Below are positions 41,993 through 49,967 of a stretch of 64,000 nt of DNA, one piece after another. Within the stretch, counting starts at the first letter, position 1. Each line of letters starts with the position of its first letter. The translations under genes and the position numbers were made by a program. The notes beneath the pieces were generated by a model. It saw only the letters and a list, made by a program, of their open reading frames with translations. It had not been told where the DNA came from and ran no database searches. Source of the stretch: Chthonomonadales bacterium (GTDB lineage Bacteria > Armatimonadota > Chthonomonadetes > Chthonomonadales > CAJBBX01); contig JBKJZI010000031.1 in the NCBI GenBank assembly GCA_046715155.1, positions 10,875 to 74,874 of the forward strand. The letters are read 5' to 3'.

Positions 41993-42802
41993 TTAGAACC
42001 GGTAGTCTTGACCGTTGACGAGGTCGTTCGGGCCGTAGAGCATCCAGTTCATGTCATGGTTGACATTCCAATTGGGCTCACGGTAGCCCAGGCGGAATAC
42101 CTTGACGTGGCCGTCTGCGAAGGCGGCATTGAACTGGCGTCCGTCCGGCGGGCGAAGTGGATTCGCCGTGGGATGGTTGCCGCCGACGTCCGGCCGCGCG
42201 CCGTATAGGCCGAGCTTCTCCTGGTGGAATGCCGCGGTCTCGAAGAGCATGATCTGCTGCGCGGGCTTGTTCACCATGGAGTCCGGAGTACCTTGCCAGT
42301 AGGTCGGTGTTGCGCTGGCAAAGATTCGGTTGTGCTCAGCTGGCCCGCCGCAGTCGAAGATGTGGCGGAAGTGGTATGACGTGGGCTTGCCCCACCAGGG
42401 CGCGGCGTTCCAGGACCAGCCGGTGCTGTTGCGGCCCCAGAAGTTCTCGCCGGTGTCGCTCGGGCACTTGAAGATCTGCTCATTCTTGATGTAGGGCTGC
42501 GCGAAATGGGAAAGACCGCCGCCCATCATGCGGACGATGTTCGTGCCGTCCGGCCTTCGATTGTTCCATGACGGATCTCCCTGGGGCGGGAGGTTACCGG
42601 AGGCGCACAGCCTCTCGTCATAGTCTTGCGCGTACATGCGGAGCGCGAGGGCAATCTGCTTCATGTTGCTAACGCAGCTCGTTTCTCGCGCTTTTTCTCT
42701 TGCTCGCGCAAATACAGGGAACAGAATTGCGGCAAGAATGGCAATAATGGCGATCACTACGAGAAGTTCGATCAGGGTGAAACCCGTTCTCCGTTGACGC
42801 AT
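41993..42802 (-). CDS. Prepilin-type N-terminal cleavage/methylation domain protein with DUF1559-like (H-X9-DG) C-terminal domain
   Basis: ATG 42802 is preceded by [47 protein letters not shown] is a class III signal. C-terminal [12 protein letters not shown]. The track ORF to 43117 is an Arg-rich extension. Confidence 0.9.
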
Positions 42803-42825
42803 ATGAGTCTCCTCTCCGATTCTGA

Positions 42826-43155
42826 TCATCGGGACGGCGGTGTGAAATTGTAACCGCCCCCAGGCCCGCCAGGCACGCCGCCTGCGGTCCCACCCCCGGG
42901 AGAAGTCATTCCGGGCGGCATACCCATCGCCCCGCTTGGAGCGGAAGGACCGCCTCCCGAGACTATCCCCGGCGGCGGCTGGTAAAACGTCCCGGTCTCT
43001 TTGAACTTCTTCTGGACCTCTTCCCCACCGGCCTTCGTACCTTTGTAGCCGGAACTTCCGAGCATGCGGTACCCGATGAAAATTACGGCGATGAGGACGA
43101 CGCCCAGGGCGAGCCATAGGACCTTGGGGTCTACCTCCTTCTTCAGCGCAATCAC
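42826..43155 (-). CDS. Small single-pass membrane protein with Gly/Pro-rich tail
   Basis: 109 aa. GTG start after [27 protein letters not shown]. Tail [42 protein letters not shown]. Lies 23 nt upstream of the prepilin-like gene. Confidence 0.6.
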
Positions 43156-43388: not shown

Positions 43389-44580
43389 TTACTGCGGGAC
43401 TAGCATGACGGCCCGCTGAGGCTGGTTGCTTGGACTGCGCGCCCAGCCTACTATGATCGCGGTCCCAGCATCCGTGACGCTCGTAGCAAACTCGATCGTC
43501 CAGGTCTGATCTGACGGGATCAGGAGGTCGTTGAGGTCGGTGACCGTTCCGTTCGGCGCGTTCGTACCGGACGGGGTCCAGGCCACGGCCCGTCGTTGGC
43601 CCAACGCGTTCGTCGATGTCCCGACGACGATTCCGGCAGAGCTTACGTCAAATGCTATGCTAGACGTTCCTCCCAGACTTGGCAGGGCGAACGTCGTTCC
43701 GGTAGTAGCATTCGCTCCGGACGGCGTCCAGAGGAACGCCTGCTGCGGGTTCCCGGGCGCCGCGCCGAATCCTACGACCTGCCCGAAGTTATTGATAGCC
43801 CGAGCGAATGTTGAAGAGAACGCGACCGGCGTAGGATTGACGGAGATGCTCGGGAGGGCGAATGCCGTGCCGCCGGACCAGACGACCGCCTGGAAGTCGC
43901 TTGTGCCGTTATGCATCTCGCCTGCGATTTGCCGTGAGTCGTTCACATCGGTCGCGCCACTTCGGGCGAACGTCGTTCCACCGATGTTCTTGGGCAGGTC
44001 GGTTCGCGCCCCGTTCACCCAGGAAGTGGCGGTATGAACGCCGGAGCCGTCCAGAAGGGAACCGACCATCATCGGCGCCGGGAAGACTCCCGGATTGTTG
44101 ATCCCGTCCGCGCGGCTGCCGAATCCGGCCGCCGTGTCGAGCGGCGACATCTCTCCACTGATCGTCTTGAAGAAAGCCACCAGCTTTCCGTCCGATAGGT
44201 TCGAGTTGCCCACTACCGTGGACGCCTCATTCATGTTGACGCCGAAGCTGTTCCGGCCGCCAAGCGTACCAATGTCGGTGGGCGGGGTTGGCCCCGTGAA
44301 CAGGAACGCATGCGTGTCCCCGTTGGAAAACCTCTGATACGCGCCCGTGGCGTGATTGGCGTTGTTCACGCGCAGCACGGAACTGTTAAGCTCTCGGCCG
44401 GGGTCGCCGGACGTGGAAGATGGGAGCACGCCGAGGTCGATCACGCGGTAAAGCGTAGCTAGCGATTGAGCCGCTGCCCCGCTTGCTGGGCAGTCGGCCT
44501 CCGCAGCCGGCGAGCGTTGCTCCAATGAACGCACAACACACAACTGGTAGATACCGTCGCGGGAATCTTTTGAACTGCAT
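43389..44580 (-). CDS. HAF-family extracellular repeat protein; lipoprotein signal peptide is in a different frame from the body (frameshift, possible pseudogene or sequencing error)
   Basis: The body (track ORF 43389..44648) has repeats ending in HAFLFTG / FQAVVWSGG / QQAFLWTP / RRAVAWTP with TLGG-type motifs. ATG 44580, with AAGGAG 7 nt upstream, encodes MQFKRFPRRYLPVVCCAFIGATLAGCGG in the frame of track ORF 44386..44802. Confidence 0.7.
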
Positions 44581-44932
44581 CTTTCTACTCCTTGGTATAA
44601 CCGAGTATGACCATCTGTCCTGGTCCAGGGATACGACGCCGGAACCAAAACGGCAAAGAAGAATGAGGAAAAGGGCCGTCAGGCCGGAGGTGCTGAGCGT
44701 GACGGTGCGCATTGCGCACGAACCGCTTGTCCTCGGAGTCCCCGATGAAGCTGGGGGACTTCTACCGCGCCGCCAGCAACTGAACCGGCAATTTGCGCGC
44801 AACTCATTGCAGAGTCAAACGCAAGACGAACGAACATTGCCGCTTGTTCCGGCTTGTGAAAGAGTTTTTTCAGGCGGGCAATTTGAGAATCCGAAGTCCA
44901 ATGTCGAATCAGGCAATTACACGCCAAAGTGA

Positions 44933-44966
44933 GCGGGCCGTCTCCCTATCTCAGGAGACGGCCCGC
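44933..44966 (-). terminator. Strong hairpin about 75 nt downstream of the PqqD-fusion gene (candidate terminator, no U-tract)
   Basis: GCGGGCCGTCTCC (44933-44945) pairs with GGAGACGGCCCGC (44954-44966): 13-bp perfect stem with an 8-nt loop. Confidence 0.45.
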
Positions 44967-45041: not shown

Positions 45042-45527
45042 TTAGAGGCATCGCAGCGTACCCTGATCGCAGGTATTGCTGCAGCACTGGTCGTTGTTGG
45101 TACATGCCGCCCCCGGCGGTAGGGTCCCGGGCCCGACACAGGTTTGAGCCTGGGCAGGGGTGGGTGCGACGATGGAATGGATCGCGGGAAGGAGCACGGT
45201 CAGTCCCCCCACGAGCGCGAGCTTTTTCATGACTGCCCGGCGGGAAACATGAGTATCGCTCTTGGGTGCGTCGTCGGCTAGGAGCCTGGCGGTCTCAAGC
45301 CGTTCGAGCGCAAGCATGACCAACTCTTCGCTCTCCGGAGCGTTCAACTCCTCATGCATAATCCGCGCCACATCCCCAATGCTCCGTTTTCCGTCGCAGT
45401 GACGCCAGACCAGCGCGGCGGTCGCGTTAAGGCTGTGTGCCTTGTGGTTGTCCAAGTCATAAACGAGGGTTTCCTCCGCAAGTTCTTCAACGAGGAGACG
45501 TTCTCGTCGTGCGTTCGGAAGCTGCAT
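45042..45527 (-). CDS. PqqD/RRE-like domain protein fused to a Tat-like hydrophobic segment and a 6-Cys C-terminal tail
   Basis: 161 aa. SD GGAGAGGAA before the ATG. AHSLNATAALVWRHCDGKRSIGDVARIM (PqqD-like); SRRAVMKKLALVGGLTVLLPAIHSIVAPTPAQAQ; TCVGPGTLPPGAACTNNDQCCSNTCDQGTLRCL. Confidence 0.8.
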   Translation of the reverse strand: MQLPNARRERLLVEELAEETLVYDLDNHKAHSLNATAALVWRHCDGKRSIGDVARIMHEELNAPESEELVMLALERLETARLLADDAPKSDTHVSRRAVMKKLALVGGLTVLLPAIHSIVAPTPAQAQTCVGPGTLPPGAACTNNDQCCSNTCDQGTLRCL

Positions 45528-45562
45528 GGCTTATGATTCCTCTCCGTCGGGCATTCGAGCCG

Positions 45563-46387
45563 CTAGCGGCTCATCTGTTTCAGTATCTTACCTGCAATTT
45601 CATCCGCTTCGCCACGCGTCCCTTTCAGGAATCGCGCGTTTGCGGTCGCTTGCTTGAGCGTTGCCATTGAATCGGCCGGACGCTTCCGCACCGGTACCGT
45701 GTTCGATAGCAGCTCAAGAATACCTTTTCCATGTGGAAGAGTGCGCGGCTGCCAACGCGCGCCTTCCTTATAAGTCAGAGAAAGTACCGCTCCAACCGGA
45801 ATCGGCTTCTTTGCCGCTCGTCCGCCGAACGCTTCCACCGGGGTTGGCGTTCCAACCGTCTCGGCGCCTTTTCTTATCGAAAGCGGCCGCGCATAAGGGT
45901 GTACCAGCCCTTCTCGATCGATTACGGCGTATTCGTCCGAGTAATACGCGGCCCCCGCCTCCACCATGGCCGCAACCAGCCGCGACTTGCCGCTGAAGCT
46001 TCGGCCCGGCAGCAAGATCGCCCGCTCCTTCCAACCAACAACCCCGGCATGGACAAAGAGCACCTTCGGCGCCATCTGCGGTACGAAATACTCCACGCTG
46101 TTCCGGAAGCTGCGGAGGAGCTCGCCCAGATCTTCGGTGCGCGCGATCTGAATAAACTCTTCATACAGCAAGTGGAACGTTCTGGTTCCTCGCCGCCGCG
46201 GCCGATCTGCAACCCTTATTGAATAGAGCAAATCCACGTGCCGCGGGCGGATAGAACGCGCCTGGGGAGGCAGATGCTCCTTTATCTGTGGAATCAGCTC
46301 CGGCAGGTTAGTTCTCACTCCCACACGAACGCCGTAGCTCATGAATGAAAAGCCGGCCGCCCAGCCCAGGCGGTCTATTTCGTCCAT
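45563..46387 (-). CDS. HPr kinase/phosphorylase C-terminal-domain-like P-loop protein (HprK-related kinase)
   Basis: 274 aa. SD AAAGGTG. FVHAGVVGWKERAILLPGRSFSGKSRLVAAMVEAGAAYYSDEYAVIDREG. No HprK N-terminal domain. Confidence 0.8.
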   Translation of the reverse strand: MDEIDRLGWAAGFSFMSYGVRVGVRTNLPELIPQIKEHLPPQARSIRPRHVDLLYSIRVADRPRRRGTRTFHLLYEEFIQIARTEDLGELLRSFRNSVEYFVPQMAPKVLFVHAGVVGWKERAILLPGRSFSGKSRLVAAMVEAGAAYYSDEYAVIDREGLVHPYARPLSIRKGAETVGTPTPVEAFGGRAAKKPIPVGAVLSLTYKEGARWQPRTLPHGKGILELLSNTVPVRKRPADSMATLKQATANARFLKGTRGEADEIAGKILKQMSR

Positions 46388-48029: not shown

Positions 48030-49967
48030 TTATCCTAATCCATAGTGTTCCAGCCACGCCTGGAACATGAGTATATCCCACAGAGCGAGCTGCCGATTCC
48101 GGCGTTTGGTCTGATGTTCGCGCCATACTTGATCGACCACTCCAGCGTTGAAGTACCCTTCTCGGCGAAGCCGTGCAGGCTCCAGGAGCGCCGCTGCCCA
48201 CTCTCGAAGCGGGCCGCGGAGCCAGCTGTCCAATGGAAGCGTAAAGCCGGCTTTGGGCCGCTCGACCAGGGCCGGCGGAACATAGCGATAGAGCGCCCGC
48301 CTTAAGAGTTGCTTACCTTTGCCATCCGATATCTTCATCGACAGAGGAATCCGCCAGGAGAGGGCAAACAGCCGGTGATCCAACAAAGGCTCTCGCGCCT
48401 CAAGGCCGACGGACATGCTTGCCCGGTCGACCTTAACGAGGATGTCGTCGGGGAGATAGCGCATCTGATCCGAGAGCATCATTCGCTCGGCAAACGGCAT
48501 TCCTGGTACAGCGGTGTTCGGGGCGTCGTCGAAGTCTGACGCTCCCAGTACCACCGATTCCGGCGTCAGCCAGTGGGACTGGATGTTCCTGAAGAACTGC
48601 CAGTCTCCTCGGGAGCTCAACGCCTGCGCCAGTTTGTGGACTTTATCGGCCGGATTCCGCTCTCGCAACCGTGGAAATACGCCGCCTCCTGCCAGGTCCC
48701 ATGCCGCGGGAGGGATCGCGCGCATAAGTCGACCGACCGCTTTACGCGCGGGGACAGGGAGGCGCCGAACGTTCGCCCACATCCGCGGTCCCCACAGGTA
48801 GCGGGTGTAACCACCGAACAGCTCATCGCCACCGTCCCCACTGAGCGCGACCGTAACAGATTCCCTCGCGAGTCTGGACACGAGGAGGGTCGGGATCTGC
48901 GAGGCATCGCCAAACGGCTCATCGTAAACTTCGGGCAATCGCGGAATCACTTCCATTGCCTCGGTGGAAGTTACGTAGAGTTCCGTGTGGTCTGTGCCCA
49001 GATGTTTCGCGACGCCGAGCGCCCACGCCGCTTCGTCATATGCCTTTTCGCGAAATCCGATGGAGAACGTCTTGACCGCGTTTGAAGATTGCTCACACAT
49101 CAAGGCCGTCACGAGCGAGGAGTCAATCCCTCCAGAAAGGAACACGCCGAGCGGAACGTCCGCAACCATTCGCAAGCGCACGGATTCATGCAGCGCTGCT
49201 TCGAGCTCGCCGGTTGCTGATTCCGCATCTACAATCTGGGTCTGCACTCCCGCGACAGCAACATCTTCGGCACGCCAGTAAGCGCGCGGCTCGCCCGCCA
49301 GGCCGGAGTCAATGCTGATTTCAAGGACGGAACCGGCTGGAAGCTTTCGGATTCCGCAATAGATCGATTGCGGCGCCGGAACGTAGCCGTACCGTACGTA
49401 TTCCAAGAGCGCGTCACGGTCCACCTCAGAGTCGAAGGCTGGATGGACCCGCAGCGCCTTCAGCTCCGATCCGAATAAGAACGACCTGCCGCAAGTCCCA
49501 TAGTAGAGCGGTTTTACGCCCAGGCGGTCACGCGCGAGGATCAGGCGGCGACTTTGACTGTCCCACAGCGCGAAGGCGAACATTCCCACGAAGCGGTCCA
49601 GCGCCCGCTCCAGTCCCCACTCTTCCACCGCCGCCAGTATGACCTCGGTGTCGGAATGCCCGCGGAATCGCACGCCCTGGTCGCTTTCGAGAGTCGCTCG
49701 CAGCTCGGGATGGTTGTAGACCTCGCCATTGTACGCGATGACAAACCGGCCCGAAGACGAAACCATGGGCTGATGACCGGCGGCGGAAAGATCGATGACA
49801 GAGAGGCGGCGGAATCCGACCGCGAAGCCGGCACCTGCGTCCGCCCAGACGCCGCAATCGTCCGGCCCTCGGTGCTGCAGCTTTGCCGCCATTCGGCCTG
49901 CGATGTCGCAAAGGCGCTCTTCAGGATCGGTGGAACCTACGCTAAGGAATCCGGCGAATCCGCACAT
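48030..49967 (-). CDS. asnB: Asparagine synthase (glutamine-hydrolysing) family amidotransferase, paralogue 3
   Basis: 645 aa. MCGFAGF start (Cys2). PP-loop VFLSGGIDSSLVTA. Confidence 0.92.
   Translation of the reverse strand: MCGFAGFLSVGSTDPEERLCDIAGRMAAKLQHRGPDDCGVWADAGAGFAVGFRRLSVIDLSAAGHQPMVSSSGRFVIAYNGEVYNHPELRATLESDQGVRFRGHSDTEVILAAVEEWGLERALDRFVGMFAFALWDSQSRRLILARDRLGVKPLYYGTCGRSFLFGSELKALRVHPAFDSEVDRDALLEYVRYGYVPAPQSIYCGIRKLPAGSVLEISIDSGLAGEPRAYWRAEDVAVAGVQTQIVDAESATGELEAALHESVRLRMVADVPLGVFLSGGIDSSLVTALMCEQSSNAVKTFSIGFREKAYDEAAWALGVAKHLGTDHTELYVTSTEAMEVIPRLPEVYDEPFGDASQIPTLLVSRLARESVTVALSGDGGDELFGGYTRYLWGPRMWANVRRLPVPARKAVGRLMRAIPPAAWDLAGGGVFPRLRERNPADKVHKLAQALSSRGDWQFFRNIQSHWLTPESVVLGASDFDDAPNTAVPGMPFAERMMLSDQMRYLPDDILVKVDRASMSVGLEAREPLLDHRLFALSWRIPLSMKISDGKGKQLLRRALYRYVPPALVERPKAGFTLPLDSWLRGPLREWAAALLEPARLRREGYFNAGVVDQVWREHQTKRRNRQLALWDILMFQAWLEHYGLG

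Follow-up and report, generated by a model that had tools for sequence, protein, structure and literature searches.

A large, undescribed bacterial protein family that appears to combine, within a single polypeptide, an RRE of the PqqD type with an export leader and a variable disulfide-rich peptide

We analyzed a stretch of 64,000 nucleotides from a Chthonomonadales bacterium (contig JBKJZI010000031.1; the whole stretch is hereafter called the window), in which one minus-strand gene encodes a PqqD-like domain followed by a signal-like segment and a cysteine-rich tail. As judged from sequence, its product belongs to a large, undescribed family whose members carry a domain of the PqqD/RRE type (RRE, recognition element of RiPPs, which are peptides made by ribosomes and modified after translation), an export leader and a variable, disulfide-rich peptide in a single chain, and this architecture recurs far beyond chance. 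An earlier, sequence-only reading of the gene had favored the fusion protein and had also raised the possibility of a nested start at an internal methionine, Met100. We found that Met100 occupies a merely hydrophobic position of a twin-arginine translocation (Tat) consensus, and we are confident that the gene has a single, full-length product and that Met100 is not a start. A search of the full-text literature, in which most subscription-journal papers are not covered, returned no paper that describes the fusion of a PqqD domain with a signal-like leader and a tail rich in Cys.

Results

One 161-residue protein and its relatives

The open reading frame (ORF) occupies positions 45042..45527 of the minus strand, from the start codon ATG at 45527-45525 to the stop codon TAA at 45044-45042, and encodes 161 residues in which the RRE domain, the twin-arginine leader and the Cys-rich core form one polypeptide. 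Direct reading of the sequence places a Shine-Dalgarno-like GGAGAGG (45539..45545, minus strand) 11 nt upstream of this ATG, and finds nothing like it ahead of the internal ATG at 45230. The N-terminus is itself conserved, with P4 and R7 kept in at least 90% of relatives, which argues that the long form is the real product.

A search with the 161-residue protein returned 677 matches (E<=1e-3, 90%-identity clusters), and the best 120 of these are almost all 157-190 aa long, with a query coverage of 93-100%. A profile search of 1.84 billion representatives at 50% identity found 2,171 proteins when E<=1e-30 was required, and 6,055 with the looser limit of E<=1e-10. Databases name the relatives 'hypothetical', 'PqqD family protein' or 'PqqD family peptide modification chaperone'. 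With one conserved peptide pattern we located 209 copies in species-representative genomes, all of them metagenome-assembled genomes (MAGs); most belong to Acidobacteriota (Blastocatellia, Pyrinomonadaceae), Gemmatimonadota and Armatimonadota, and a lesser share to Methylomirabilota, Rokuibacteriota, Nitrospinota, Binatia and Chloroflexia. Residue conservation was counted in three samples, namely 121 metagenome proteins, 102 genome copies and 146 representatives at 50% identity (369 in total), and gene neighborhoods were surveyed in 85 loci of related fusion genes.

An RRE that may hold its own leader

The PqqD part of the fusion, as the sequence-only reading had it, is genuine: PF05402 matches residues 19-79 with 36.5 bits against a cut-off of 23.4. 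The domain extends over approximately residues 8-88 (45264..45506, minus strand) and consists of three strands followed by three helices. In the AlphaFold2 (AF2) model of the full-length protein, which has a mean predicted local distance difference test score (pLDDT) of 85.5, the strands lie at 11-15, 20-24 and 29-33 and the helices at 35-42, 50-61 and 67-79, with block-mean pLDDT values of 87-96. The top Foldseek matches in the PDB were the lasso-peptide proteins TbiB1 (5v1u, 5v1v) and TfuB1 (6jx3), both solved with leader peptides bound, at a target-normalized TM of 0.69-0.77; PqqD and the RRE domains of RiPP maturases came next. BsfB1 is 38% identical to the domain over 47 aa, and the fusion protein has three NCBIfam matches, all weak (ScmD, daptide HExxH and PqqD). 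As modeled, then, the N-terminal domain is an RRE of the lasso-B1 kind with a winged-helix fold.

Several observations are consistent with cis binding of the leader by the RRE. When the whole protein is modeled, the leader forms a helix at 96-106 and then a five-residue strand at 116-120 (block pLDDT 78). When residues 92-161 were modeled alone, from an alignment of the same fragments that was shallower than the full-length one (48 vs 106 sequences), the strand was lost, the helix lengthened and the block pLDDT was 52, with the shape of the tail unchanged. In the model, then, the strand requires the RRE, which would be the outcome if AF2 placed it next to beta-3 in the manner of RRE-leader complexes; the docking itself is deduced from secondary structure and pLDDT alone. 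Mutual information places pairs between RRE columns 32, 30, 76 and 80 and leader columns 117, 119 and 107-113 among the strongest long-range pairs, and the top covarying pairs (32/117, 30/119 and 76/108-113) match the expected beta-3/alpha-3 groove. This covariation is suggestive of an RRE-leader contact, and it traces to two clades and an indel subfamily, maybe only a couple of events. Leaders of lasso peptides carry the motif YxxPxL at -17 to -12 (PMC10368454; PMC6784204); counted from A127, P114 (-14) and I116 (-12) have the same spacing, whereas -17 is Val or Leu and not Tyr, and -2 is Gln, Met or Ala and not Thr. From the model and these patterns we infer that the RRE may bind its own leader in cis, a reading against which the shallower fragment alignment, the indirect evidence for docking, the possibly few covariation events and the differing -17 and -2 residues all count.

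A twin-arginine leader that ends in a putative signal peptidase site

The domain is followed by S95-R-R-A-V-M-K-K (45222..45245, minus strand), which by its residues is a twin-arginine motif of the form S/T-R-R-x-F-L-K. Its R96-R97 pair is present in 121/121 metagenome proteins, 102/102 genome copies and 145/146 representatives. Ser or Thr stands at 95 in 110/121, 93/102 and 135/146 sequences of the same samples, and Arg or Lys at 101 in 111/121, 91/102 and 122/146. The TIGR01409 model (TAT_signal_seq) scored 16.7 bits on the C-terminal fragment alone, which is exactly its cut-off, and PF10518 reached 9.5 bits in one relative against a cut-off of 22.7.

The hydrophobic region (h-region) that follows, L103-A121 (45165..45221, minus strand), contains G107-G108 and P114-x-I116; across relatives it has a median length of 19 residues and a mean Kyte-Doolittle value of 2.04. 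P114 is kept in 118/121, 102/102 and 142/146 sequences, position 116 is Val or Ile in 120/121, and position 118 is Ser or Thr in 119/121, 100/102 and 146/146. The c-region, P122-T-P-A-Q-A127 (45147..45164, minus strand), ends in a putative signal peptidase I site after which Q128 would come first. Conservation is again high, with P122 kept in 121/121, 101/102 and 142/146 relatives, Ala at 125 in 113/121 and Ala at 127 in 109/121. Small residues at -3 and -1 and P122 as a helix breaker at -6 match the signal peptidase I pattern. A lipoprotein signal was considered and rejected, as the A-Q-T-C before Cys130 is no lipobox and Cys130 is missing in 18/121 relatives.

The signal-like segment described by the sequence-only reading is therefore retained, with its basic n-region beginning at S95-R96-R97 and not at Met100. 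That reading had preferred processing of the full-length fusion, and the support for this route comes from conservation (A125-x-A127, P122 and the tails). On these patterns we lean slightly toward export with cleavage.

Hypervariable, mostly cysteine-rich cargo

The core of the window protein (45045..45146, minus strand) comprises 34 residues with six Cys in the knottin-like arrangement C-x11-C-x5-CC-x3-C-x6-C, and with T129 at +2. Cys makes up 17.4% of tail residues and 1.35% of the rest of the protein. The tails of relatives have an even Cys count in 116/121, 100/102 and 143/146 cases (359/369), as paired disulfides outside the cytoplasm predict, and Ser or Thr stands at 129 in 116/121, 93/102 and 132/146. 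Gln at +1, from which a pyroglutamate had been suggested, occurs in only 26/121 relatives and does not support this modification as a family trait.

Beyond A127 the sequences are hypervariable, and tail length ranges from 0 (truncated entries) to 188 residues, with medians of 35-43. The commonest form is C...C...CC...C...C, which includes the tail in the window, and six Cys with a CC pair are found in 44/121. Matches to known peptide families stay under the cut-offs: Conotoxin_I2 (17.6 bits vs 27), omega-atracotoxin and, in a relative, UPF0506 (21.3 vs 23.2); some relatives carry precomputed matches to PF11703 or PF06357. AF2 models tail residues 141-160 with block-mean pLDDT values of 90-92. 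On the number and spacing of its Cys residues, we infer that the core is knottin-like, with three disulfides. A C-terminal Ser, the kind of kinase target known from paeninodin, was rejected for this family because only 5/102 copies end in one.

The module does not appear to be confined to mini-peptides. Cargo of at least 80 residues is found in 18/146 representatives, always behind the same RR-leader-AxA-[ST] junction, and these long cargos include multi-module Cys-rich domains and Cys-free low-complexity tails. Two proteins, P0263 and P0363, end in low-complexity stretches of about 110-140 residues that lack Cys and are rich in Ser, Gln, Asn and Gly, and two others, P0269 and P0325, carry apparently globular domains as cargo behind the leader. 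The fusion gene is present in 2-4 copies, mostly in tandem, in 13/85 loci (for example L016 9425-11186, L065 7323-12798 and L023 7000-10489). In most of 23 tandem-paralogue pairs the heads are more alike than the tails, for instance 0.83 vs 0.39 and 1.00 vs 0.49.

An adjoining kinase and a conserved three-gene cassette

The gene immediately upstream, 35 nt from the fusion gene, encodes a HprK-like P-loop kinase of 274 aa (45563..46387, minus strand). It is a distant relative of HprK-related kinase A: the TIGR04352 model gives it 53 bits, where the cut-off is 200 and kinase scores are 53-60 bits. No sequence in the PDB matched the 274-aa protein at E<=1. BsfK is 33% identical to it over 82 aa of the catalytic core. 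The residues H113, G133-K134-[ST]135 and D151-[ED]152 are kept in 50-52/52 syntenic kinase homologues and match residues that were shown to matter in BsfK (PMC10368454).

A kinase homologue lies upstream on the same strand, usually adjoining the fusion gene or array, in 51-52/85 loci, and a PF14907 'uncharacterised nucleotidyltransferase' lies downstream in 45-56/85. Only three families recur across the 85 loci, namely the fusion gene (85), the kinase and the PF14907 nucleotidyltransferase. No conserved cyclase, protease, radical-SAM enzyme, cyclodehydratase, lanthionine synthetase or transporter was found across these loci; AsnB homologues are limited to 3/85, and BLASTP at E<=1e-3, a search of limited sensitivity, gave no BsfB2-like protease (0/85). 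In the window, neither a second fusion-gene copy nor a C25 peptidase was found.

Comparable components are known from lasso peptides. It has been reported that lasso precursors are phosphorylated by HPr-kinase homologues while the leader is still attached, with PadeK, ThcoK and SyanK acting on the C-terminal Ser, and that in pseudomycoidin the phospho-Ser receives hexoses from the nucleotidyltransferase PsmN (PMC8498205). The target of BsfK is Ser3 of a lasso core, and its phosphorylation is strongly accelerated by the RRE protein BsfB1 (PMC10368454). Many lasso clusters contain an HPr kinase together with PqqD and an uncharacterised nucleotidyltransferase (PMC7533575).

In the window a long exopolysaccharide operon on the minus strand ends with the fusion gene. 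Its other products include a Wza-like exporter, glycosyltransferases, a flippase, a polymerase-like protein, a chain-length determinant, a fucokinase, a UDP-sugar dehydrogenase and a Cys2-containing AsnB-type amidotransferase. A 14-bp perfect GC-rich hairpin (44933..44966, minus strand) lies 76 nt after the stop codon, in a 76-nt stretch with a folding energy of -38.5 kcal/mol (z -4.4). This hairpin probably marks the end of the operon; it has a weak T tract, and a scan for consensus terminators made no call on the minus strand.

A proposed route and its alternatives

The model that we prefer starts with one translation from ATG 45527, which would give a 161-residue pre-pro-protein of three conserved parts. 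In the cytoplasm, the RRE would grip its own leader in cis. The junction would thereby be offered to the HprK-like kinase encoded next to it and, in the majority of relatives, also to the PF14907 nucleotidyltransferase that is absent here. Candidate acceptors are T129 (+2), by analogy with Ser3 of BsfA, and S118 (-10). Modification would take place while the protein is still cytoplasmic, with ATP at hand, and post-translational export would follow. The invariant RR pair argues for the Tat route; the hydrophobic h-region and the lack of a basic c-region residue make the general secretion (Sec) route possible. Signal peptidase I would then cut after A127, as the -3/-1/-6 pattern suggests, and the 34-residue core would fold outside the cytoplasm with three disulfides, as Cys parity and spacing suggest. 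For the sequence of cis binding, cytoplasmic tailoring, export, cleavage after A127 and disulfide folding as a whole, we see the chances as evenly balanced. That the kinase acts on the 161-residue protein is a tentative proposal on which we are somewhat doubtful.

A number of points weigh against this model. The choice of phosphorylation site is a guess, and the PF14907 gene was not found in the window. The twin-arginine signal is borderline by profile: on the fragments of three relatives TIGR01409 gave 15.3 bits, 11.4 bits and no match. The RR motif begins not in the usual N-terminal position but at residue 95, behind a folded domain, where, to our knowledge, standard signal predictors would not look. 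Positions 123-127 lack a basic residue in 196/217 sequences, so the charge associated with Sec avoidance is missing, and a long hydrophobic h-region without a basic c-region is as much a trait of Sec signal-anchors as of Tat signals. A long h-region can also prevent cleavage. Finally, every relative comes from metagenomes or MAGs.

Some of these properties are what the main rival would predict. Here the RR-flanked stretch would be a signal-anchor, inserted via Sec/YidC or Tat and left uncleaved, in a type II membrane protein with the PqqD domain on the cytoplasmic face and a disulfide-rich mini-domain on the periplasmic face; such a protein could serve as a tethered RRE scaffold or as a sensor linked to the polysaccharide operon. 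The 19-residue h-region has a transmembrane-like Kyte-Doolittle value, with no basic residue in the c-region, and P114...S118...P122 is conserved far beyond ordinary signal peptides, which could mean that a functional (juxta)membrane segment is retained. The gene closes an exopolysaccharide operon, and N-in signal-anchored Tat substrates exist, for example Rieske proteins (PMC5449189). An anchor would, however, have no need of the small -3/-1 residues and Pro at -6 that are kept in about 90% or more of relatives, and hypervariable cargo, Cys-free tails and tandem arrays form a pattern typical of released products. In addition, G107-G108 and P114 are helix-breaking, and the AF2 model is without a continuous helix. 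Taking both sides, we consider an uncleaved anchor rather unlikely.

A second rival would keep the protein in the cytoplasm, with the hydrophobic segment serving as an RRE-bound leader and the tail as a substrate for cytoplasmic chemistry or a site of metal binding. AF2 does give 116-120 as an RRE-dependent strand and not as a membrane helix, classical RiPP precursors are modified in the cytoplasm, and the RR pair might aid recognition by an enzyme instead of export. The tails speak against it: the number of Cys is even in 359/369, and this parity and the knottin-like C-C-CC-C-C spacing both suggest disulfides. So do the loci, in whose neighborhoods radical-SAM enzymes, cyclodehydratases, lanthionine synthetases and dedicated exporters are not conserved, and the leader, in which S/T-R-R-x-hydrophobic-hydrophobic-K/R, a hydrophobic stretch and A-x-A make up the full grammar of an export signal. 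We judge a non-exported protein very unlikely.

Within the preferred model, a more specific view can be formulated in which the cis-fused RRE would act as an intramolecular proofreading chaperone, comparable in function to TorD/DmsD. It would hold the Tat leader until the conserved junction Ser or Thr is phosphorylated or phosphoglycosylated by the HprK-like kinase and, in most relatives, the PF14907 nucleotidyltransferase, and Tat would then export pre-modified cargo, which would be a knottin-like peptide here and a domain of up to about 190 residues elsewhere. We regard this view as improbable.

Met100 is a hydrophobic position of the twin-arginine motif

The sequence-only reading had correctly placed ATG 45230-45228 (minus strand) in frame, as codon 100 of the ORF 45527-45045, and had correctly noted that ccgggcagtc, which precedes it, is without a Shine-Dalgarno motif. 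Translation from this codon would give MKKLALVGGLTVLLPAIHSIVAPTPAQA / QTCVGPGTLPPGAACTNNDQCCSNTCDQGTLRCL, the second part having 34 residues, six Cys and Gln first, again as described. A nested gene, with ribosomes initiating at Met100 as well and producing a Sec-type pre-peptide of 62 residues independently of the PqqD part, gains some plausibility from the KK, hydrophobic stretch and AQA that follow the in-frame ATG, and from some ATG within five codons after the RR pair in 52/100 genome copies.

Conservation does not bear this out. Met occupies column 100 in 40/121, 20/102 and 26/146 relatives (18-33%), and in the sample of 121 it alternates with other residues (L 45, M 40, V 20, A 10, I 6). 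Among 100 genome copies the codon is ATG in 19, and in only 2 does an internal ATG near column 100 follow a Shine-Dalgarno-like 4-mer. Orthologues therefore mostly lack the internal Met that the sequence-only reading would have them share, and keep the A-x-A site that it also named. Columns 99 and 100 are hydrophobic throughout the relatives, and because column 100 varies among Met, Leu, Ile, Val and Ala, S95-R-R-A-V-M-K-K reads as a twin-arginine motif with Met100 (45228..45230, minus strand) at the 'L' position of S/T-R-R-x-F-L-K. A start at Met100 would delete R96-R97, which is kept in 368/369 relatives, and the nested start is thus unsupported.

We also looked for a stand-alone leader-core gene with a profile built from residues 92-161 only. 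None was present among the best 120 matches, nearly all of which contain a PqqD domain and are about 135-156 aa long. Of the short matches (<=118 residues), 13 were read individually: 10 retain the end of the PqqD domain, 2 begin at contig ends and 1 (P0135) is a miscalled start within a complete in-frame fusion ORF. Taken together, column conservation, the absent Shine-Dalgarno motif and the loss of the RR pair led us to reject Met100 as a start, so that internal initiation, one of two routes in the sequence-only reading, is dropped as extremely unlikely. For annotation, Met100 should not be called as a start and the gene should remain one ORF.

Other genes near the cassette

Proteins of the Peptidase_C25 (gingipain) family, 1,050-2,088 aa long, are encoded on the same strand beside the cassette in about 18-20/85 loci (for example L001 9758-16024, L026 5460-8894 and L085 4289-7363), so that family genes adjoin giant peptidases at roughly one locus in five. 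Because protease inhibition is common among knottin-type peptides, a functional link between the fusion peptide and the C25 peptidase is possible. In 11 loci (for example L070 11657-12961) a 424-450 aa protein with no Pfam or NCBIfam match adjoins the fusion gene, sometimes between it and the PF14907 gene.

Within the window, the AsnB-type amidotransferase (48030-49967, minus strand) lies two genes from the PqqD/kinase pair and starts MCG, with Cys2 intact. It scores 572 bits with the XrtA/PEP-CTERM model (cut-off 816.9) and 224 bits with the lasso cyclase model (cut-off 525), and could be mistaken for a lasso cyclase. Directly downstream of the hairpin, a HAF-repeat protein (TIGR02913, three repeats) is encoded at 43389-44648 on the minus strand, and no relation between it and the cassette was seen in other loci. 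A 374-aa ORF at 41993-43117 (minus strand) carries the prepilin N-methylation motif FTLIELLVV at residues 108-133. This DUF1559-type pseudopilin probably starts at an internal Met about 105 codons downstream, the long N-terminus being an artefact of ORF listing.

Discussion

If our reading is right, this would, as far as we could find, be the first RiPP-like family with its recognition element inside the precursor, and not in an enzyme or a stand-alone chaperone. It would also provide a bacterial route to secreted, disulfide-rich peptides of the knottin type and a case of a Tat-type signal behind a folded cytoplasmic domain, an architecture that current signal predictors and RiPP-mining tools would miss. 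Its clusters, at least 2,171 when formed at 50% identity, lie in soil phyla that are poorly cultured, so that this large and unannotated family makes a considerable blind spot, and one that is accessible to experiment.

The closest comparison is with the tailoring module of lasso peptides (BsfB1/BsfK, PadeK, ThcoK/SyanK and PsmK/PsmN). The fold of the RRE is nearest to TbiB1 and TfuB1, the window kinase has the BsfK core H...GxxxxGK[ST]...D[DE], and a PF14907 nucleotidyltransferase is the usual third gene in relatives (PMC8498205, PMC7533575). Pro at -14 and Ile or Val at -12 are spaced as in YxxPxL, and a conserved Ser or Thr near the start of the core recalls Ser3 of BsfA. There are also differences: here RRE and precursor form one fused protein, the leader has an RR motif and A-x-A instead of Thr at -2, and the core appears disulfide-rich and not a macrolactam. 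A lasso cluster proper was rejected, as there is no cyclase (the AsnB protein of the window is best matched as an XrtA/PEP-CTERM amidotransferase) and BLASTP gave no B2 protease in 85 loci. Both enzymes were looked for and not found, so that the cassette would be a lasso-type tailoring module (B1, K, N) in its working and yet is no lasso system.

With Tat signals, including those of actinobacterial Rieske proteins that depend on both Sec and Tat, the leader shares the motif, the invariant RR, the hydrophobic stretch and A-x-A, and with Rieske-type substrates also the internal position of the motif. Tat can recognize internal, membrane-tethered signals, in which Sec is avoided through low hydrophobicity and C-terminal positive charges, and such internal signals are known only after Sec-inserted helices (PMC5449189). 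In this family, by contrast, the motif follows a soluble folded domain, the h-region is more hydrophobic and there is no Sec-avoidance charge.

Three further systems share single traits with the family. TorD and DmsD are proofreading chaperones of Tat substrates; a signal-binding element is plausibly present here as well, in cis, and in contrast to theirs it would be a PqqD/RRE fold. The HPr-rel-A system (TIGR04352 with a small PqqD partner) likewise places an HprK-like kinase next to a PqqD-family gene, with occasional linkage to exopolysaccharide loci. Its PqqD partner is not known to have a leader or Cys-rich extension. The window kinase lies far under the equivalog cut-off, outside the membership of that system, and no HPr-rel-A-system PqqD model is among the three weak NCBIfam matches of the fusion protein. 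Knottins have the six Cys of the form C...C...CC...C...C that the core fits into 34 residues, within the 25-40 residues of such mini-proteins; the weak conotoxin, omega-atracotoxin and UPF0506 matches and the confidently modeled tail point the same way. All Pfam matches of the window protein are under their cut-offs, so that 'knottin-like' refers to Cys spacing, and a bacterial origin and an RRE-containing pro-region set the family apart.

In evolutionary pattern the family resembles long-leader RiPP precursors with nitrile-hydratase-like (NHLP) and Nif11-like leaders, reportedly described by Haft et al. in 2010. Those precursors also combine a large, domain-derived, conserved leader with a short hypervariable core, frequently occur in tandem arrays and have heads more conserved than tails. 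Unlike them, our family has the RRE itself as its leader domain, cargos of up to 188 residues in some members, and a putative general-secretion-type cleavage site instead of a dedicated C39-peptidase/ABC exporter. On these comparisons we regard the family's product as RiPP-like, namely as a precursor to which an RRE is fused in cis and whose leader is of the general-secretion type.

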